Assembly (NCBI GenBank): GCA_039189765.1 | Contig: JBCCYL010000001.1 | Location: 125,020-189,019, forward strand | Origin: Cyanobacteria bacterium P01_F01_bin.150 | GTDB taxonomy: Bacteria; Cyanobacteriota; Cyanobacteriia; CAKZMO01 | Length of the DNA: 64,000 nucleotides | Direction: 5' to 3' | Shown: positions 3,244 to 26,200 of the stretch, piece after piece | How positions within the stretch are numbered: the first letter of the stretch is position 1 | Layout of the letters: each line of letters begins with the position of its first letter | Made by a program: the position numbers and the translations under genes | The notes under the pieces: generated by a model | What the model was told of the DNA's origin: nothing | Seen by the model: only the letters and a program-made list of their open reading frames with translations | Database searches by the model: none

Positions 3244-4008
3244 TTGTTATCTTTTGGCAACCATTTATGTGTGGTGAAACTTGAGTCTATGATCACCCAA
3301 TCTTCTGTTACTGTTGGAGACTTATTGCTAGAGATTGATCACATTTTTATCTGTGTTGATGCTGAACCCGATCCAGGGGCCTTTGCACGACTTGGCCTTA
3401 TATGTTCTGACCAAGTGGTTCGTCGTGAGCAACAGGGCATAGCATCACGCCTCGTTTTCTTTAACAACGTCTACCTTGAGTTTGTGTGGGTAGAGGATGC
3501 CGAACAGGCTGAGATTTATGCCATGCGTTCTGGAATTGACTACCTATCCCGTGCTCAGTGGAAAGTGTCCCAGTATTGTCCATTAGGGGTTGCATTACGA
3601 CACTGTAATGTGAACGACCCAGATCCAGACTTAAATGTTTTTAATCATACGTCAAATGTCGCTGATGGGGTAATCCGACTAGAAGCCAGTAACTTAGTTG
3701 CTCAGTGGGAGCCATTTTGCTACATAATTCCGTCGGCGATCGCCCTCACGACGCTTTTTGCACGCTCTCGTACCATGCAGGGGCAGCTTACTAATCACGC
3801 CTTAGGCATTCAGCGATTGACCCATGCTCACATGTCAATGGAGCATGAGGGACCCTTGACGCCGCCCATGTCCATGCTAGAGAAGGTTGGCATTGTTGAG
3901 TTAACTCAGAATCAGCAATTTGAGCTTATCTTGACCTTTGATCAGCATCGACAAGGACGGTGTCTAGATCTGGTATCTTTAGATATTCCGGTTATCTTGA
4001 GATACTAA
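3244..4008 (+). CDS. Hypothetical protein, glyoxalase-like (VOC-fold) domain
   Basis: 254-aa ORF. The segment LLEIDHIFICVDAEPDPGAFARLGL...GIASRLVFFNNVYLEFVWVED resembles the Glyoxalase_3-type pattern DH...lGF...G.aNrlvfF.n.YLElv.v.d. The start is uncertain; the alternative is ATG 3289 (MITQSS). Confidence 0.45.
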   Translation: MLSFGNHLCVVKLESMITQSSVTVGDLLLEIDHIFICVDAEPDPGAFARLGLICSDQVVRREQQGIASRLVFFNNVYLEFVWVEDAEQAEIYAMRSGIDYLSRAQWKVSQYCPLGVALRHCNVNDPDPDLNVFNHTSNVADGVIRLEASNLVAQWEPFCYIIPSAIALTTLFARSRTMQGQLTNHALGIQRLTHAHMSMEHEGPLTPPMSMLEKVGIVELTQNQQFELILTFDQHRQGRCLDLVSLDIPVILRY

Positions 4009-4011
4009 AGC

Positions 4012-6024
4012 GTGGGGTTTCGTTTTCAGTCTAAACAGAATAATGGTGTTGTGGGTGGGTCGCGTCCACGGCACTCGCCTAAAGCCGATCCCAAAAGCAT
4101 GGATAGGATCGGGTTAATACTGTGGCGATCGCTTCGGCCCTATTGGCTTGATACAGCACAACGATGGTCAGCCTGGGGCCTACTGTTCTTGTTATTACTG
4201 TTATCCATCGGTAGCAGCGCTGCTTTAATTTGGGAAACGATTGAACGGGGCAATATTTTATCTGCCCTAGCGGCCCAAGATGGGCAAAGATTTGCCAGCT
4301 CCATCATCATCTTTATTGGCTTGTTAATTGCGAGTGTTCTGCTTTTATCGTTCAAAACTTACGTGCAAGAACGTTTAGGGTTGAACTGGCGCAACTGGCT
4401 AACGCGACAAACCCTGAGCCAATATCTACAGCCCTATAAGTTCTATCAGCTTCAATATCCCATTGACAATCCTGATCAGCGTATTTCTGATGACCTTAAG
4501 ACGGTCTGTCAGGATTCACTAATGTTTCTCACGATTCTGTTCGACTCAGTGGTCCAGCTTATTGGCTTTGGCAGTGTTTTATGGCTAATTTCTAAGCCAT
4601 TGATGGGAATTTTAGTCACCTATGCAATAGCTGGTACCGTTGTCACTACCCTGATATTTGGTAGAGTCCTACTGGGCATCAACCGTCAGCGATTACAGCA
4701 GGAAGCTGATTTTCGCTATGGATTGATTCGAGTGAAAGAACAGGCAGAGGCGATCGCGTTTTATCAAGGTGCCTCAAACGAGTATGGTCAGGCTAAAATC
4801 CGTTTCCTAAATGCGTATCAAACAGTTCAGCGGCTCATTCGCTGGCAGTTTGGGCTAACCATTTTTCAAAATGGCTACCAGTACTTGACGTTTATTTTGC
4901 CGTTTATCATTCTAGCTCCTCAAATTTTTGCTGGGAACCAGGAAATCGGCACAGTGGTACAGTCCCAAGCCGCATTTGAGCGCATCGGCTTTGCCCTGGG
5001 CTTAGTCATCACCCAATTTGACAAGCTAAGTGCATTTGGAGCCGCAGTTAAGCGCTTAGATGGACTAAACAAAGGTTTAGAAAAGGCAGAAATAAAGGCA
5101 GAAATAAAGGCAGAAATAAAGGCAGAAGGCAGAAGGCAGAAGGCAGAAGAACCCACCCCTAGCCCCTCCCAGGAGGGGGACCGGAGTAGCCCAACGCCCC
5201 AACGCCCAACGCCCAACGCTCAACTCTCCAACTCTCCAACTCTCCAACTTCCCAACTTCCCAACGCCCCAGCTCTCCAACGCCCCAACGCCTCAACGCCC
5301 TATCCAAAATCTAAAATCTAAAGTTATTTCCTTTCAAAATTTAACGTTGACGACGTCGGCTAAAACGCTGGTGCGTGATTTATCCTTTGAGGTTGCGGAA
5401 GGGCGATCGCTTCTTATCACTGGAGCCAGTGGTGTGGGTAAAAGCTCATTGGTGAGGGCGATCGCAGGGTTATGGCAGTCAGGGGAAGGAGTGATCGGGG
5501 TTCCGCCCCGAGAGCAGCTCTTGTTTTTACCCCAGCGCCCCTATATGCCGTTGGGTGATTTGCGCTATCAGCTACATTATCCCCATCACCATGTTCAAAA
5601 ACAGACTGAGACATTTGACATCCGGTTATCGAACAAGCAGCTATCTAACGAGCAAATATCTAACCAGCGATTAAAAGATATTCTTGTTCAAGTTAATTTA
5701 GCCCATCTAACTGATTATTTAGGCAGTACAAATTCCGTATCTGCCCAAGAGTACGAGGATATGGACTGGTCACAAGTTCTTTCGCTTGGCGAACAACAAC
5801 GTCTTGCCATTGCCCGTGTTGTCCTTAATCCTCCGGTCTATGCCATCCTCGATGAAGCCACCAGTGCCCTCGACGAAGCCAACGAAGCCAACGTCTACCA
5901 GCTTCTGCAAACTCTCCCTACTACGCTTATCAGCATTGGTCATCGCCCCTCACTCACTGCTTATCACCAAACCCTCCTCACCCTCAACCCAGACGCTACC
6001 TGGACCTTAAAATCTATCCCGTAG
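4012..6024 (+). CDS. ABC transporter ATP-binding/permease protein, TMD-NBD half-transporter of the SbmA/BacA/ABCD (ABC_membrane_2) type
   Basis: 670-aa ORF. The N-terminal region contains hydrophobic, transmembrane-like stretches (LLFLLLLLSIGSSAALIW, IIIFIGLLIASVLLL). Walker A is GASGVGKSS, the ABC signature LSLGEQQRLAIARVVL, Walker B AILDEATSALD and the H-loop IGHRPSL. Its paralogous relationship to the next gene supports a start at ATG 4099 (MDRIGLILW...) rather than 4012. Confidence 0.85.
   Translation: MGFRFQSKQNNGVVGGSRPRHSPKADPKSMDRIGLILWRSLRPYWLDTAQRWSAWGLLFLLLLLSIGSSAALIWETIERGNILSALAAQDGQRFASSIIIFIGLLIASVLLLSFKTYVQERLGLNWRNWLTRQTLSQYLQPYKFYQLQYPIDNPDQRISDDLKTVCQDSLMFLTILFDSVVQLIGFGSVLWLISKPLMGILVTYAIAGTVVTTLIFGRVLLGINRQRLQQEADFRYGLIRVKEQAEAIAFYQGASNEYGQAKIRFLNAYQTVQRLIRWQFGLTIFQNGYQYLTFILPFIILAPQIFAGNQEIGTVVQSQAAFERIGFALGLVITQFDKLSAFGAAVKRLDGLNKGLEKAEIKAEIKAEIKAEGRRQKAEEPTPSPSQEGDRSSPTPQRPTPNAQLSNSPTLQLPNFPTPQLSNAPTPQRPIQNLKSKVISFQNLTLTTSAKTLVRDLSFEVAEGRSLLITGASGVGKSSLVRAIAGLWQSGEGVIGVPPREQLLFLPQRPYMPLGDLRYQLHYPHHHVQKQTETFDIRLSNKQLSNEQISNQRLKDILVQVNLAHLTDYLGSTNSVSAQEYEDMDWSQVLSLGEQQRLAIARVVLNPPVYAILDEATSALDEANEANVYQLLQTLPTTLISIGHRPSLTAYHQTLLTLNPDATWTLKSIP
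5077..5310. repeat. In-frame block of heptamer/octamer/12-mer tandem repeats (STRR-like) inside the ABC transporter linker
   Basis: GCAGAAATAAAG occurs 3 times, GGCAGAA 4 times, CCCAACG-type and CAACTCTC/CAACTTCC units follow, plus a ~58-nt unit (5145-5202) nearly identical to 6026-6083. The block translates as EIKAEIKAEIKAEGRRQKAEEPTPSPSQEGDRSSPTPQRPTPNAQLSNSPTLQLPNFPTPQLSNAPTPQRP without breaking the frame. Confidence 0.7.
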
Positions 6025-6184
6025 ACAGAAGAACCCACCCCTAGCCCCTCCAAGGAGGGGGACCGGAGTAGCCCAACTCCCCAGTTTTTCCGCTCCCCAA
6101 CTCCCCAACTCCCCAACTCCCCAACTCCCCAACTTCAAAATCCAAAATCCAAAATCCAAAATCCAAAATCGACCCAACCCTCCC
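6025..6184. repeat. Intergenic STRR-like tandem repeats (CCCCAACT x5, AAAATCC x5) plus second copy of the ~58-nt GAAGAACCCACCCCTAGCCCCTCC.AGGAGGGGGACCGGAGTAGCCCAAC unit
   Basis: Read directly from the sequence. The unit contains the hairpin CCCCTCC(NAGG)AGGGGG. Heptameric short tandemly repeated repetitive (STRR) sequences are characteristic of cyanobacteria. Confidence 0.7.
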
Positions 6185-8056
6185 ATGACTCATCCCCACC
6201 GCCAACCCTTCAAGCTTCAATTTCTTCAACGGCTATGGCAAGTGGCTCGGCCCTACTGGACCTCCTCCGAAAAATGGCGGGCATGGGGCTTACTTTTACT
6301 TTTGCTTTTACTATCTATTGTCAGTGCCGGGCTATTGGTTGTTGTTAGTATTTTTCTAGGGGATGTCACCTCTGCATTGGTGGCCCAGGATAGCGATCGC
6401 TTTTGGCAATCGGTTTTTATATTTATCGGTGTCATCCTAGTTGGCGTGCCACTTTTATCACTAAAAATCTTTGTTCAAGCCCAGCTCAGTTTGTATTGGC
6501 GTCGGTGGCTTACCCAAGAAATGCTACAGCGGTACTTTAGCAATCGCCAATTCTATAAACTCAGCCAGGTCAATCATCACTACGATCGCACCTCTTCTGA
6601 TATTGCGGCCAATATTGACAATCCTGATCAGCGCATTGCTGAAGACATTAATACATTTACAGAACAAGCCCTATTTTTTCTAATTGCTTTTCTGGACTCA
6701 TGCCTCCAGCTTATGGCCTTTGTGGGTGTACTCTGGGCAATTTCTAAACCGTTAATGGCCTTTTTAGTCGCCTATGCAATGGGGGGAACGATGATTACAG
6801 GCCTTGTTTTTGGCCGTAAACTAATCTATCTCAATGTGGAGCAGCTAAAACGAGAGGCTAATTTTCGTTTTGGGCTGGTGCGAGTGCGTGAAAATACGGA
6901 GGCGATCGCCCTTTACGACGGTCAAGCCCAGGAGCTATCTATCCTCCAACAGCGATTCCAGTCGCTATTTGATAATTTTAATCATCTAATCCGCTGGCAG
7001 CTGGGTCTCAACTTTTTTCAAAACGGCTACCAGTATCTAACGTTCCTTCTTCCTGCCCTAATTCTGTCTGGCCCCATCCTGAATGGCACGATGGAAGTGG
7101 GCGTACAGTCTCAAGCGGTGATTGCCTTCCGCAGCATTCTGATTGCCCTTGCGGTTATTATTCAACAGTTTGAGAAGCTAGCAGAATTTATGGCTAGGGG
7201 CGATCGCCTCCACGCGTTTCGGAACGCTATGCTCCCACCTCATCTGTCCTTCCCTATAAGTCCTTCGGACCGGCAGATAGGGGATCGGCAAACAGAGGAC
7301 TCGGAGAAACTGGAGATTCGTCATAAGCCCAGCCGAACGGAGGTCATCCAAACGATTGAAGCTCCCTATATCGCCCTTGACCATCTCACGCTTTACACGC
7401 CCGATCGCTCTACCGAACTGATTACCGATTTATCACTCACCGTGGAACCGGGGCAATCGTTGCTTGTTCAGGGTCCCAGTGGTGTGGGTAAAAGTTCATT
7501 ACTGCGGGCGATTGCAGGGCTTTGGGAGACGGGATCAGGGACGATTAGAAGACCGCCTTTAGACCAAATCGTCTTTTTACCCCAGCGACCCTACATGGCA
7601 TTGGGAACCCTGCGCCAACAGTTGATGTATCCTGTCACTCCATCTGCTTTAACTGGGGATGAATCTGTGGATGAAGAGCTGCTCCAGCATATTCTTGAGC
7701 AGGTGAACCTACCATTTCTAAAAAAGCAGTATGATGGATGGGACTCTATTGAGAACTGGTCGCAGATATTATCGGTGGGTGAGCAGCAACGGTTGGCGAT
7801 CGCTCGTCTTCTCGTAACACGATCTTTACAAACTTCAATCCCAACCGACAATCAGACTAAGTCTCTGATATCACCAATAGTTACCAGCACCTATGCGATT
7901 TTAGATGAGGCCACCAGCGCCCTGGATCAAGACAATGAAGATCGACTCTATCAGACTCTATTTGAGCATTCCATTACATATATAAGCGTAGGACATCGGC
8001 CTAATTTACAGCGCTATCATCACCATATTTTGACGTTGGATAGGCAAGAACCCTAA
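6185..8056 (+). CDS. ABC transporter ATP-binding/permease protein, paralog of the preceding gene (likely heterodimer partner)
   Basis: 623-aa ORF with the same architecture. Walker A is GPSGVGKSS, the signature LSVGEQQRLAIARLLV, Walker B AILDEATSALD and the H-loop VGHRPNL. It has an unusual ~26-aa insertion (TRSLQTSIPTDNQTKSLISPIVTSTY) between the signature and Walker B, and a long linker insertion between the TMD and NBD. Confidence 0.85.
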   Translation: MTHPHRQPFKLQFLQRLWQVARPYWTSSEKWRAWGLLLLLLLLSIVSAGLLVVVSIFLGDVTSALVAQDSDRFWQSVFIFIGVILVGVPLLSLKIFVQAQLSLYWRRWLTQEMLQRYFSNRQFYKLSQVNHHYDRTSSDIAANIDNPDQRIAEDINTFTEQALFFLIAFLDSCLQLMAFVGVLWAISKPLMAFLVAYAMGGTMITGLVFGRKLIYLNVEQLKREANFRFGLVRVRENTEAIALYDGQAQELSILQQRFQSLFDNFNHLIRWQLGLNFFQNGYQYLTFLLPALILSGPILNGTMEVGVQSQAVIAFRSILIALAVIIQQFEKLAEFMARGDRLHAFRNAMLPPHLSFPISPSDRQIGDRQTEDSEKLEIRHKPSRTEVIQTIEAPYIALDHLTLYTPDRSTELITDLSLTVEPGQSLLVQGPSGVGKSSLLRAIAGLWETGSGTIRRPPLDQIVFLPQRPYMALGTLRQQLMYPVTPSALTGDESVDEELLQHILEQVNLPFLKKQYDGWDSIENWSQILSVGEQQRLAIARLLVTRSLQTSIPTDNQTKSLISPIVTSTYAILDEATSALDQDNEDRLYQTLFEHSITYISVGHRPNLQRYHHHILTLDRQEP

Positions 8057-20201: not shown

Positions 20202-23200
20202 ATGACAATAATTAATCTGAGCGCAAGTCCTACAACCCTAATTGAAGACCAGGGGACGCGAGTTACCTTTCAAATCTCTTTGAGTGAGGCACCTCCTACT
20301 AATGGTTTACAGGTTAACTTTGGGACAGGTAAGGACAGAGGATTAGCGGACTTTTTGGTACTTCCTGCGGATGGTGCAGTATATGACGGAGCTTTCCCAG
20401 TTGCGTCTTTTCCCGATTTAAGTGGGGTTACTCTTCTGATTACCTCACAAAATCCGACTATTTCATTCAACATTTTTGATGATGCTGATCTTCCGGCTGA
20501 TGATCCAAATGCAACCGTCAATGATGATGTTGGAGAAGAGCAGACTACCTTCTCTATTTTGCCTGGTGATGGCTACACCGTTGGTGATAATGGCTCCGTA
20601 ACGCTAACGCTTCTAGATACGGAAGGTGCTGAAGGCGGTGAAGGTGCTGAAGGCGGTGAAGGTGCTGAAGGCGGTGAAGGTGCTGAAGGCGGTGAAGGTG
20701 CTGAAGGCGGTGAAGGTGCTGAAGGCGGCGAAGGTGCTGAAGGCGGCGAAGGTGCTGAAGGCGGTGAAGGTGCTGAAGGCGGTGAAGGTGCTGAAGGCGG
20801 CGAAGGTGCTGAAGGCGGCGAAGGTGCTGAAGGCGGTGAAGGCGGTGAAGGTGCTGAAGGCGGTGAAGGTGCTGAAGGCGGTGAAGGTGCTGAAGGCGGC
20901 GACGTCACCGTTAGCTTTAGTACGACCTCTGGTACCCTCAGCGAAGTCGATGGCCCTGCACTGGTACTCAACTTCAGTGTGGATGGCGAAATCCCTGAAG
21001 GTGGCATCACAGTCAACCTGGAAGGAGATACTGCCGAGATTCTCCAGCAGTTCTTGGCTCCAGATGGCGATGGTGCAGTCCAAACTCGAGTTACCGAAGA
21101 AGGCACTACCCTTTATCGCTTTGACACGTCGTTTGTCCCTGGCGCGGGAATTGAAGGCGGAACACTGGATGTGTTCTCCCTGGAAGATGGCGACCCAGCA
21201 GAAGACAACTCTAACCCAGCAGCAGCAGGGACTGGCTTCTTAAGCAACTTTAGCTTCACCATCACCGAATCGACAGCTAGTATTACCTTGCCAGTGTCTG
21301 ATGACATTGTCCAAGAGGCGGACCAAACTTTCAGCTACACACTTGTAGCAGGGGATGGTTACACCGTAGACCCAACTCAAAACTCAGGTACATTCACCGT
21401 AACGGATGGGGTCACTCCTGCCACATCCCCAACCGTTGGTGTTGTAGTTAGTGAAACCAACCTAGTCGAAGAAGAGCAAACCAGAACAACGCTTACCTTC
21501 ACCACAGCGGGAGACATCCCTGCTGAAGGACTGTTGGTTCAGTTGCAAGGACCAACCAGGGCCGTCGCTGAATTTGACGTTAATGGCACGAATAATACCC
21601 AGCCTCGTTTGCCGGAAGATGAATTAGAGGTAACTGGTCCGGTTGTCACCGGCGGTAATATCGCTGGTACCGATGAAGTAGCCGGTTCGGTATTCTTCCG
21701 AATTGCAGAACCCACAGCATCTATAGATATCGCTGTCTTTGATGATGATGTGATTGAAGGCACTGAAAATCTGACCTTCACCCTAGTTGATGGCGAAGCC
21801 TATGAAGTTGACTCTGCGGCCAGCTCCATTGCAGTGACTATTACTGATAGTGATGGTTTTGAAGGTTACCAGCCTGGTGATGCAGCTAGATTAGTAACTC
21901 CCCCTGCTCCTGCTCCAACCAATCCTGGAGAACAAGCTAATGCTGACTTTGTAGATCAGCTTGAAGGTGAGGAACTTCTTGACGAACTACAAGACGGTGG
22001 TTATGTAATCTACTTCCGTCATGCCATGACCGAGCGCGACTTCGCGGATCAAGTCACAGCAGATGTTAACGATTTTTCCACTCAGAGGGTACTGAGTGAG
22101 TTTGGTATACAACAATCCCTCGCTATCGGTGAAGGTTTTGAACTAGCTGAAATTCCTGTTGGCTCTGTAACCACTAGTGATTATGGCCGTGCTGTTAAGA
22201 CTGCTGCGATCGCATTTGGTGAGTACCAGAAAGACTCTGCGCTGAACTTCCTGCCATTTGAAGACTACACCGATGCACAAATCGAAGAGATGCGGGCTAA
22301 TGTACTGCCTTTCTTGACTACAGAACCAGAAGCTGGAGAAAACAGCGTCATCGTTGGTCACGATGATCTCTTTGAGGCTGGAACGGGCATTTATCCTGAT
22401 CCACAGGGTATTGCTTATATTCTTGACCCAGACGGTATGGGTGGTTTCGAAATTGTTGCTAACCTACTGCCTGAGGAATGGGTTGAGCTAGCTGAAGGCG
22501 GCGAAGGTGCTGAAGGTGGCGAAGGTGCTGAAGGTGGCGAAGGTGCTGAAGGTGGCGAAGGTGCTGAAGGTGGCGAAGGTGCTGAAGGCGGCGAAGGTGC
22601 TGAAGGCGGCGAAGGTGCTGAAGGCGGCGAAGGTGCTGAAGGTGGCGAAGGTGCTGAAGGTGGCGAAGGTGCTGAAGGTGGCGAAGGTGCTGAAGGTGGC
22701 GAAGGTGCTGAAGGTGGCGAAGGTGCTGAAGGTGGCGAAGGTGCTGAAGGCGGCGAAGGTGCTGAAGGCGGTGAAGGTGCTGAAGGCGGTGAAGGTGCTG
22801 AAGGCGGCGAAGGTGCTGAAGGTGGCGAAGGTGCTGAAGGCGGCGAAGGTGCTGAAGGCGGCGAAGGTGCTGAAGGCGGCGAAGGTGCTGAAGGCGGTGA
22901 AGGTGCTGAAGGCGGTGAAGGTGCTGAAGGCGGCGAAGGTGCTGAAGGCATCACCGTAGACATTAGCAGCAGTCCAAATGTTTTAGTTGAGGAAGATGGC
23001 ACAAACCTAACTGTATCCTTTGAACTAAGTGAAGCGGCTCCAGCGGGTGGTCTACGGGTGTTCGTGGATAGCGATATTCCAGGAATCGTCAGCCGATTGA
23101 ATCTACCTTTCTTTGCCTTTAACCCTCAGGTGGAGAATGTCGATCCGTCATCCTTCGTCACATCCTTTGATAACTCTGGATTTGCCCTCACTATTGATGA

Positions 23201-26200
23201 AGGATCAACTGGAGCATCTTTTACTATTCCAGTCTTCGATAATGCTGAGCCTGCTGATATAGCCCCTGAAGTGTTCGATGGGCTAGTTGAAGCTACGTTC
23301 ACGCTGCAAACAGAGGTCAGCACTGAAGATCAGACTGATGTTGGTACTCTAGGTGATTACAGTGTTGGCGATGGAGTAACAGCCGTTGTTTTCGCAGACA
23401 CAGCTAGTCAGCTTGAAGGCGCTGAAGGCGGTGAAGGTGCTGAAGGCGGTGAAGGTGCTGAAGGCGGTGAAGGTGCTGAAGGCGGTGAAGGCGGTGAAGG
23501 TGCTGAAGGCGGTGAAGGTGCTGAAGGCGGCGAAGGTGCTGAAGGCGGCGAAGGTGCTGAAGGCGGCGAAGGTGCTGAAGGCGGCGAAGGTGCTGAAGGC
23601 GGCGACGTCACCGTTAGCTTTAGTACTACCTCTGGTACCCTCAGCGAAGTAGATGGTCCCGCACTGGTATTGAACTTCAGTGTGGATGGCGAAATCCCTG
23701 AAGATGGCGTTACAGTCAACATAGAAGGGGATACTGTAGAGATTCTTCAACAGTTCTTGGCTCCAGATGGCGATGGTGCAGTGCAAACTCGGGTTACCGA
23801 TCAGGGCACTACCCTTTATCGTTTTGACACTTCCTTCGGTCCTGATGCGGGACTTGAAGGTGGAACGCTGGATGTATTCTCCCTGGAAGATGGCGACCCA
23901 GCGGAAGACAACTCCGACCCAGCGGCAGCCGGAACAGGTTTCTTGAGCAACTTTAGCTTCACCATCACCGAATCGACAGCTAGCATTACCTTGCCAGTGT
24001 CTGATGATATTGTTCAAGAGGCAGACCAGACCTTTAGCTACACACTTGTAGAAGGGGATGGTTACACCGTAGACCCAACTCAAAACTCAGGTACATTCAC
24101 CGTCACCGATGGAGTCACTCCTGCTACATCACCAACCGTTGGTGTTACAGTCAGTGAAGCCAACCTAGTCGAAAACGAGCAAACCAGAACAACACTTACC
24201 TTCACTACTGAGGGGGATATCCCTGCTGAAGGGCTGCTGGTTCAGCTACAAGGATCGGCCAGAGCCGTTGCTGAGTTTGACGTGAATGGCACGAATAATA
24301 CCCAACCTCGTTTGCCGGAAGATGAGTTAGAGGTAACAGGTCCTATTGTCACAGGCGGTAACATTGCTGGTACCGATGAGGTAGCCGGTTCGGTATTCTT
24401 CCGAATTACAGAACCTACAGCAACCATAGATATCGCTGTCTTCGATGATATTGTGGCTGAAGGCACTGAGAACTTGACCTTCAACCTAGTTGATGGCGAA
24501 GCCTATGAGGTTGACTCTGCAGCTAGCTCCATTGATGTGACTATCGTTGATGACAACGGCGACCTTGACGACGTCACCGTTAGCTTTAGCACCACTTCTG
24601 GCATCCTTAGTGAAGTCGATGGCCCTGCCTTGGTGCTGAACTTCAGTGTGGATGGCGAAATCCCTGACGGTGGTGTCACAGTCAACCTGGAAGGGGACAC
24701 TGCAGAAATTCTGCAGCAGTTCTTGGCTCCGGATGGCGATGGTGCGGTTCAAACTCGGGTTACCGATGAAGGCACTACCCTTTATCGCTTTGATACCTCC
24801 TTTGGCCCTGATGCGGGACTTGTAGGTGGAACACTGGACGTATTCTCCCTAGAAGATGGTGACCCAGCGGAAGACAACTCTGATCCAGCGGCAGCCGGAA
24901 CAGGCTTCTTGAGCAACTTTAGCTTCACTATCACTGAGGCAACAGCCAGCATTACCTTGCCAGTGTCGGATGACATTGTTCAAGAGGCGGACCAAACCTT
25001 TAGCTACACACTCGTAGCAGGGGATGGTTACATCGTAGACCCAACTCAAAATTCAGGGACATTCACCGTCACTGATGGGGTCACTCCTGCCACATCGCCA
25101 ACCGTCGGTGTTGCAATCAGTGAAACCAACTTAGTTGAAGACGAGCAAACCAGAACAACGATTACCTTCACCACAGAAGGAGACATCCCTGCCGAAGGAC
25201 TGTTGGTTCAGCTGCAGGGTTCTGCCAGAGCCATCGCTGAGTTTGATGTGAATGGCACAAATAACACCCAGCCTCGTTTGCCAGAAGGCGAATTAGAGGT
25301 AACGGGTCCTGTTGTCACAGGCGGTAATATCGCTGGTACTGACGAAGTAGCCGGTTCAGTGTTCTTCCGAATTACAGAATCTACAGCATCAATAGACGTC
25401 GCTGTCTTTGATGATGATGTGGAAGAAGGCACTGAGAATCTGACCTTTACACTAGTGGATGGTGAAGCCTATGAGGTTGACTCTGCGGCCAGCTCCATTG
25501 CAGTGACTATCGAGGATGGTGATAGCTTTGAGGGTTACCAGCCTGGTGACGCTGCTAGATTAGTCACTCCTCCTGCTCCTGCTCCAACAAATGAGGGAGA
25601 GCAAGCTAATGCTGACTTTGTCGATGTATTAGAAGGTGAAGAACTCCTGGATGAGCTACAAGACGGTGGGTACGTAATCTACTTCCGTCATGCCATGACA
25701 GAGCGCGACTTCGCGGATCAGGTCACAGCAAATGTCGATGACTTCTCTACTCAAAGGGTTGTCAGTGAATTCGGAGTCCAGCAATCCCTGGCCATTGGCG
25801 AAGGATTTGAGGCAGCCGAGATTCCCGTTGGTTCTGTAACCACCAGTGACTATGCTCGTGCAATTGAAACTGCGGCGATCGCGTTCGGTGAGTATCAGAA
25901 GGATTCTGCACTGAACTTCCTGCCGTTTGAGGACTACACTGATGCGCAAATCGAAGAGATGCGGGCTAATGTGCTGCCTTTCTTAACGGCGGAACCAGAA
26001 GCCGGTACAAACAGCGTCATCGTTGGTCACGACGATCTCTTTGAAGCTGGAACGGGCATCTATCCTGATCCTCAGGGTATTGCTTACGTTCTTGACCCCG
26101 ATGGTGACGGTGGTTTTGAGATTGTTGCCAACCTATTGCCTGAAGAGTGGATTGAACTGGCTGAATTTGATGGAGGCGACGCTCCTGCTGACATCGACTT

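Follow-up and report, generated by a model that had tools for sequence, protein, structure and literature searches.

Tandem repeats and a dispersed hairpin in the interdomain linker of a cyanobacterial ABCD/SbmA-type half transporter, with a sister block in the adjacent spacer

A stretch of 64,000 nucleotides (nt) from Cyanobacteria bacterium P01_F01_bin.150 (assembly GCA_039189765.1, contig JBCCYL010000001.1, positions 125,020 to 189,019 of the forward strand), referred to below as the window, contains two neighboring genes, ABC1 and ABC2, for half transporters of the ATP-binding cassette (ABC) type. ABC1 carries an in-frame block of tandem repeats in the linker between its transmembrane domain (TMD) and its nucleotide-binding domain (NBD), and a related block fills most of the spacer between the two genes. 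A single continuous open reading frame (ORF; 4012-6024, plus strand) covers ABC1, with a GTG codon at 4012 as the mechanically called start; comparison with homologs suggests that the true start is likely to be the ATG at 4099, which would give a protein of 641 amino acids (aa) encoded at 4099-6024. Pfam matches, the alignment of homologs, relatives in the PDB and sequence motifs identified this protein as a half transporter (TMD plus NBD) of the ABCD/SbmA-BacA type. The TMD (PF06472, ABC_membrane_2, aa 51-306) is followed by an ABC ATPase (PF00005, ABC_tran, aa 455-618; 670-aa numbering) in which all five motifs are intact (Walker A, Q-loop, signature, Walker B and H-loop). This architecture is common to ABCD4 (6JBJ), Rv1819c (6TQE) and ABCD1, and the PDB chains of this group (ABCD1/3/4 and Rv1819c) were matched by ABC1 with E-values of 1e-54 to 1e-84, but the solved relatives have no equivalent of aa 331-408 of ABC1. 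The window is cyanobacterial in character, with 34 HIP1 sites (GCGATCGC) against about one expected, and the close homologs of ABC1 are all cyanobacterial.

The linker block (5077-5310) adds about 75 to 78 codons after the last helix of the TMD and before the first strand of the NBD. It is made up of 12-mers, AAGGCAG heptamers, a hairpin core of 51 nt and roughly 14 octamers. The arrays, here and in the spacer, were called with Tandem Repeats Finder. The 12-nt array (AAAGGCAGAAAT, 3.8 copies with 100% matches, 5082-5127, plus strand) codes for (KAEI)n, and the heptamer array (AAGGCAG, 4.4 copies with 100% matches) lies at 5119-5149 on the same strand. The first copy of the core (5145-5195, plus strand) contains, at 5149-5186, the core of a wider family, GAACCCACCCCTAGCCCCTCC-CAG-GAGGGGGACCGGAG; its hairpin lies at approximately 5163-5179, and the copy is translated as EPTPSPSQEGDR. 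An octamer array composed of CCCAACGC, CCAACTCT and CCAACTTC (14.2 copies with 82% matches, 5190-5300, plus strand) codes for a segment rich in P, T, Q, S and N. A further, heptamer-like array of three ATCTAAA units was called at 5302-5322 (plus strand). It codes for IQNLKSK, which has counterparts in the two closest orthologs (IQNLTSK and VQNQKTK), aligns with I-x-x-x-E in distant ones, and falls in a region modelled by AlphaFold2 as a strand (aa 403-406, predicted local distance difference test (pLDDT) score of about 90). Judging from the alignment and the model, this stretch is native coding sequence for the first NBD strand and not part of the insert, with which it had been grouped in the original prediction. 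Through the linker block, the frame of the gene is the only one open, the other two plus-strand frames reaching stop codons.

The block coincides with the tether between the two domains. The Pfam domains of ABC1 stop at aa 306/351 and restart at aa 455 (670-aa numbering), and the HMMER matches to ABCD1/3/4 and Rv1819c cover residues 81-330 and 409-637 (641-aa numbering), skipping the insert. In an AlphaFold2 model built from an input of 48 sequences (mean pLDDT of 78), the TMD and the NBD were both confidently predicted, on either side of the insert. The last helix (H307-350) was modelled as continuing through the E/K-rich part, for which the 12-mer and heptamer arrays code, and the P/T/Q/S-rich part (aa 357-397) had pLDDT values below 50. 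The model thus suggests that the linker continues the helix through its E/K part and is disordered in its P/T/Q/S-rich part. A second in-frame insert containing repeats was observed within the NBD of ABC1 (5587-5655, HHVQKQTETFDIRLSNKQLSNEQ; 15-nt array at 5627-5668). It was found in none of the aligned homologs and was modelled with a pLDDT below 50.

We measured linker length as the distance from the FQNGYQY motif to Walker A in 110 homologs in which both anchor motifs were located. The median distance was 118 aa and 100 of the 110 proteins fell within the range of 112 to 123 aa; ABC1 had the longest linker, at 179 aa. Three claims of the original prediction were borne out: that the repeat block is translated in frame, that it sits exactly in the TMD-NBD tether, and that it is extra, repeat-derived DNA with respect to almost all homologous genes, 100 of the 110 lacking it.

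The spacer between ABC1 and ABC2 (6025-6184) is 160 nt long, and 145 nt of it are occupied by the second repeat block. The second copy of the core (6027-6077, plus strand; family core at 6031-6068) starts 3 nt past the ABC1 stop codon and is identical to the first at 50 of 51 positions, the sole difference lying in the hairpin loop, which reads AAG. None of 100 dinucleotide shuffles yielded two matches to the 51-nt core, and no third copy was found within the 64 kb when two to three mismatches were allowed in sub-patterns. Only the spacer copy has a second, small hairpin (GGAGTAGCCCAACTCC) with a TTTTT run after it (6065-6089, plus strand). It resembles a terminator, but the promoter and terminator scan gave no more terminator-like matches than expected from shuffled sequences, making this weak evidence. 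Further downstream lie a perfect octamer array (CTCCCCAA, 5.2 copies, 6093-6134, plus strand), with a G-quadruplex motif on the minus strand, and a perfect heptamer array (CAAAATC, 5.0 copies, 6136-6170, plus strand). Of the six canonical G-quadruplex motifs in the window, three fall in the two repeat blocks, all of them antisense (minus strand, 5152-5170, 5190-5214 and 6095-6130).

The sister copy announced in the original prediction is real. The ortholog from a TARA metagenome contig has a stop/start overlap (ATGA) between ABC1 and ABC2 and no spacer, from which we conclude that the spacer in the window is an addition. The recurring unit, given as about 58 nt, corresponds to 51 nt plus the first array unit, as the two copies diverge past nt 51; the homology of the blocks is, however, wider than had been claimed, spanning the core, the octamer array and the A4TC heptamer array. 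Local copying of the ORF block is the most likely origin of the spacer block, to judge by the sequence that the two have in common past the family core, by the same order of arrays, and by the correspondence of the terminal CAAAATC array with native NBD codons. ABC2 (6185-8056, plus strand) was recognized by Pfam as a paralogous half transporter and is 48% identical to ABC1 on conserved columns. A 22-aa insert of its own (SLQTSIPTDNQTKSLISPIVTS, 7823-7888) was observed directly ahead of Walker B and was found in none of the aligned homologs.

The sequence was checked against Logan SRR22824305, an independent assembly of short reads from the same organism in which the exact ABC2 protein is present. 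No exact match was found for the ABC1 protein (670 or 641 aa) or for a 465-aa ORF. The ABC2 gene and that of the 239-aa protein upstream of ABC1 are on short contigs broken at the repeats: one contig ends in the 12-mer array (at about 5111) and another starts in the CAAAATC array (at 6144). In these contigs, the sequence on either side of each block is identical to that of the window, as are the first two 12-mer units and the last heptamers. Because the contigs break inside both blocks, independent confirmation extends to the flanks and stops short of the interiors.

The two closest orthologs of ABC1, from the TARA metagenome contig and from Cyanothece sp. SIO2G6, are each 75-76% identical to it on conserved columns. 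Orthology was concluded from this identity and, for the TARA contig, also from gene order, which is common to the window for a DUF3102 gene, a 245-aa gene, ABC1, ABC2 and a giant protein; the SIO2G6 contig is shorter and carries just ABC1 followed by ABC2. The SIO2G6 linker is shorter than the window block, yet it can be aligned over its full length, with 87 of 131 nt identical (66%), against 69-78% identity in the rest of the gene. It contains, in the same order and frame, a heptamer-like tract (CAGAAGACAGCAGGCAGCAGGCAG), a decayed core (ACCTATCTCTAGCTCTTTCCATGCAGGAGAACAGAGCA), one or two CCAAC units and the A4TC codons; apart from these CCAAC units it has no octamers. The 12-mer array is absent from both orthologs. 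With the scoring schemes chosen as fitting an identity of about 65% (5/-4 and 1/-1), none of 2000 linker shuffles attained the score of the core match, and 1 to 8 of 2000 core shuffles did so; under strict 2/-3 scoring, the match was not above chance. Substitutions in the SIO2G6 linker are mainly from GC to AT. From these alignments, either the composite was present at the linker site in an ancestor common with SIO2G6, or repeats have targeted this site more than once. Array expansion, which is what sets this organism apart, appears to be recent, because the arrays are perfect.

The TARA linker showed no significant trace of the core. It has, at approximately 7115-7190 of the contig, an in-frame palindromic segment of about 50 nt (GTTCGACTGAG...CTCAGTCGAGC) flanked by TCCAAAATCAAAAA direct repeats, which has the appearance of a further small element with a duplicated target. 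In SIO2G6, ABC1 and ABC2 are separated by a spacer of 331 nt occupied by a different palindromic element (1860-2050 of the contig), a GC-rich double hairpin with inverted flanks (CCCCCCTTAATCCCCCTTGCCAAGGGGGG...CCCCCTTTACAAGGGGGAGTTAGAGGGGG). More distant homologs also have repeats in the same linker: that of Nostoc edaphicum (CP054698.1; P0116) contains an in-frame 39-nt unit in 2.4 copies with a related hairpin (CCCCACCCTAACCCTCCCCTTGCAAAGGGGAGGGAAC), and that of Nodosilinea (P0104) an in-frame 15-nt array of 5.7 copies. Two further homologs with long linkers have peptides of repeat-derived appearance. On this sequence comparison, the TMD-NBD linker has been invaded by repeats independently in Nostoc edaphicum and Nodosilinea.

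The family of the core was searched for with an exact 23-nt pattern on genome and metagenome contigs. This overly specific pattern recovered only two true relatives and two chance matches. Symploca sp. SIO2E6 has two tandem 38-nt core units (GAACCCACCCCTAGCCCCTCCAAGGAGGGGGACCGGAG), and in a metagenome contig from ENA the core forms the left half of a unit of about 110 nt with inverted ends, which itself recurs several times. On a plasmid of Nostoc sp. NIES-3756, the core is identical at 29 of 29 positions and begins 3 nt past a stop codon, and is followed by TAATAAC/TAATGAC heptamer arrays and then by the next gene; a Leptolyngbya plasmid has a more distant version. An exact 18-mer from the core (CCCACCCCTAGCCCCTCC, 5152-5169 and 6034-6051 in the window) is present in 32 IMG/VR contigs with a GC content of 42-71% and no enrichment in HIP1 sites, which were for these reasons considered non-cyanobacterial. 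Nearly all these 18-mer copies are followed by a hairpin that keeps the same outer stem (CCCCTC/GAGGGG) throughout, whereas its inner stem changes from copy to copy yet remains complementary. The motif often lies 2-9 nt past a stop codon on the same strand and often near contig ends, and some copies are inverted doublets. No family was matched in Rfam scans of the window region and eight related loci, no paper was found in a literature search for the core string, and the folding energy of both strands of both window cores was not better than that of dinucleotide shuffles (z of -0.1 to -1.2).

Several known classes of repeats resemble parts of these blocks. Short tandemly repeated repetitive (STRR) sequences are reportedly a feature of cyanobacteria; their consensus sequences are CCCCA(A/G)T (STRR1), TT(G/T)GTCA (STRR2) and CAACAGT (STRR3). 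None of the array units of the window equals one of these, CCCCAACT being an STRR1-like unit plus one base. Tandem 7-nt units with a C4/G4 tract, a location between co-directional genes, a G-rich antisense strand and G-quadruplex potential are features held in common with STRR and G-rich heptamer repeats. The units (AAGGCAG, CAAAATC, the octamers CCCCAACT and CCCAACGC, and the 12-mer) are nevertheless unlike those of STRR1-3 and GGGGAYT arrays. STRR hosts are reportedly heterocystous cyanobacteria; the closest relatives here are Cyanothece sp. SIO2G6 and a marine TARA contig. The name STRR, used in the original prediction, consequently suits the arrays of period 7 (AAGGCAG and CAAAATC) but not the block as a whole, in which the units depart from the canonical consensus, the largest array has a period of 8 and another has a period of 12. 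Small dispersed hairpin repeats (SDR1-8) are said to be embedded in heptamer arrays in Nostocaceae. Passages in citing papers describe SDRs as 21-27 nt long and as reported in Nostocaceae only (PMC5861425, PMC3116915). Like SDRs, the window core is a very short dispersed repeat that can form a hairpin, often within tandem heptamer arrays, but at about 38 nt it is longer, the comparison being with descriptions of SDRs only.

The core behaves like a repetitive extragenic palindromic (REP) sequence. REPs are imperfect palindromes of 20-40 nt found mainly just downstream of ORFs, sometimes as inverted doublets (PMC3733652, PMC3116915). The core family shares with REPs and REPINs (Di Nocera et al. 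2013; Bertels and Rainey 2011) a short palindrome that often follows ORFs. The GC stem of the window core measures 6-7 bp; members of the family agree in the outer stem and differ in the inner one, which stays complementary. The window core lacks the GTAG/CGTC tag of the described REP super-families at the foot of its stem; CTAG immediately precedes the stem, and GTAG comes only 8 nt beyond its 3' end. Rickettsia palindromic elements (RPE) are reportedly found in frame within genes and are said to be selfish palindromes tolerated at surface or linker positions of functional proteins, as in ABC1; by the same accounts they are 100-150 nt long and have no flanking tandem arrays, and they are unrelated to the window core in sequence and phylum. 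The suggestion of a miniature inverted-repeat transposable element (MITE), also made in the original prediction, was rejected, as neither block has terminal inverted repeats or a target-site duplication, which in a MITE flank a unit of 70-300 bp; the unit of about 110 nt in the ENA contig has inverted ends, but its right half is missing from the window copies.

The linker thus contains a GC-rich hairpin repeat of about 38 nt, the sequence family of which is dispersed across several cyanobacteria, with its leader and stem recurring in many other bacterial and phage contigs, and this repeat sits among slippage-prone arrays of 7, 8 and 12 nt in a variable TMD-NBD linker. We favor, at a probability of about 0.6, a non-adaptive reading, in which the tether is permissive, the repeat DNA that it harbors is neutral or selfish, and the spacer received a local duplicate. 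On the alignment with SIO2G6, heptamers, core, CCAAC units and A4TC codons were already combined at the linker site in the lineage common to the two organisms. Replication slippage would then have expanded the arrays in this organism, giving the longest linker of the family, and selection would retain only those combinations of length and frame that keep the NBD intact. The 12-mer part would be neutral to the frame and lengthen the helix, and the octamer part would form a disordered P/T/Q/S spacer. The spacer block would be paralogous to the linker block over the right-hand two thirds of the latter, and would most likely be a local copy made from the ORF; the CAAAATC array that ends the spacer block is a repeat form of the native NBD codons (IQNLKSK). 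Before this block arrived, ABC1 and ABC2 may have abutted or overlapped, and its arrival would have separated them by the present 160 nt. None of the consequences would be a selected function: the longer tether, the loss of tight translational coupling and the frameshift-prone tract would be by-products, as would any weak attenuation at the hairpins of the spacer.

Protein linkers are known to tolerate in-frame repeat or REP-like DNA, and the ABC1 block adds one case of this kind. The original prediction had called the insertion unusual, which is difficult to maintain given the hairpin of Nostoc edaphicum and the 15-mer of Nodosilinea in the same linker, and given documented intragenic repeats: among the GGGGA(C/T)T heptamer arrays of Nostoc PCC 7120, about one third lie within genes (Rehm et al. 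2015, PMC4692102), and some REPs lie in frame within ORFs, with clusters coding for 43-82 aa (Di Nocera et al. 2013, PMC3733652). The proposal that it might be a recent event applies to the array expansions alone, which do look recent, but not to the composite, a decayed version of which occupies the same site and frame in SIO2G6.

Several observations weigh against the reading as non-adaptive DNA with a local duplicate. The ORF core shows no departure from the family consensus, against 12 changes over about 36 nt in the SIO2G6 copy, and third codon positions are only 46.5% identical between ABC1 and SIO2G6; under neutral decay of one insertion, the chance of all 12 changes falling on one branch is about 2e-4. 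Because neutral decay fails to explain this asymmetry, gene conversion, re-insertion or constraint is needed. Furthermore, the loop variants CAG and AAG each match variants found in other genomes, which fits independent origins as well as it does a substitution after duplication, and the spacer copy is at the typical place of the family, just past a stop codon, a position that random local duplication does not predict. An active element is kept in contention by the consensus-perfect ORF core and by this position of the spacer copy, together with the loop variants. It would take the form of at least two independent insertions of a mobile SDR- or REP-like hairpin that prefers or creates tandem-repeat contexts, one in the linker and one just past the ABC1 stop codon, the SIO2G6 copy resulting from a parallel or earlier event at a hotspot. 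The dispersal of the core across genera, the usual location of family members 2-9 nt past a stop codon, the two loop variants, the entry of a related hairpin into the same linker in Nostoc edaphicum and the pristine state of the window copy, set against a near-saturated synonymous divergence suggestive of a younger age or re-insertion, all point in this direction. We nevertheless regard independent insertion as rather unlikely, since the window copies, unlike those of other genomes, have at least 9 nt in common past the family core and the same order of octamers and A4TC units, the A4TC unit of the ORF belongs to the native codons of the NBD, and the terminal inverted repeats and target-site duplications of an inserted element were not seen. 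Improbable, in our view, is a broader version in which the core belongs to a cross-phylum class of hairpins (the 18-nt leader plus stem of the 32 contigs) copied or homogenised by gene conversion or homing; homogenisation would keep the ABC1 copy at the consensus while the ortholog copy decays, and the arrays would act as a putative slipped-strand switch by which ABC1 is made either as the complete TMD-NBD transporter or as an SbmA-like protein with the TMD only.

Selection for the block itself is an equally doubtful explanation. The block could be a lengthened tether, in part helical and in part disordered, that tunes TMD-NBD coupling or partner binding, or a potential slipped-strand contingency switch, in which the gain or loss of one heptamer or octamer unit would turn the NBD off and leave a TMD-only, SbmA-like protein. 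The perfect arrays of 7 and 8 nt are not multiples of three and both alternative frames stop within the block, features that establish the potential of a contingency locus alone; the persistence of the composite in two lineages and the modelling of the E/K part as a confident helix extension are also consistent with selection. The insert sequence is, however, not conserved between orthologs past the decayed DNA homology, the linker inserts of other homologs are unrelated in sequence, and a short linker functions in 100 of the 110 homologs. The breaks of the SRR22824305 assembly within both blocks could alternatively reflect an assembly artefact or a pseudogene, with repeat numbers mis-assembled and the gene interrupted or the block chimeric. 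This we consider highly unlikely, as the frame is kept over 234 nt of 7-, 8- and 12-nt units, the downstream NBD has all its motifs and a confident fold, the flanks match in the independent contigs, and a homologous segment is in frame in the SIO2G6 ortholog.

Around the two transporter genes, two other features of the window were observed. A conserved protein of 239-254 aa is encoded immediately upstream of ABC1 (3244-4008); it has no Pfam match, and its synteny is kept in the TARA contig and in a Logan contig. Downstream of ABC2, a series of giant ORFs (933-3569 aa) with numerous internal repeats spaced at about 400-900 nt extends from 8606 to 62398 on the plus strand, and includes long perfect 18-nt arrays coding for GAEGGE-type repeats (20622-20899, 22491-22949 and 23414-23602). 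The TARA relative has a giant ORF at the equivalent position.

The findings call for caution in annotation: low-complexity linkers and "hypothetical" antisense ORFs at these blocks come from repeats, and short-read assemblies break at them. In ABC1, repeat DNA has colonised a coding linker and left the gene intact, a clean and well-anchored case that is accompanied by a series of orthologs that includes a decayed copy, an alternative element and a state without the spacer. The TMD-NBD tether of cyanobacterial ABCD/SbmA-type transporters emerges from this comparison as a recurrent safe harbour for repeat DNA.

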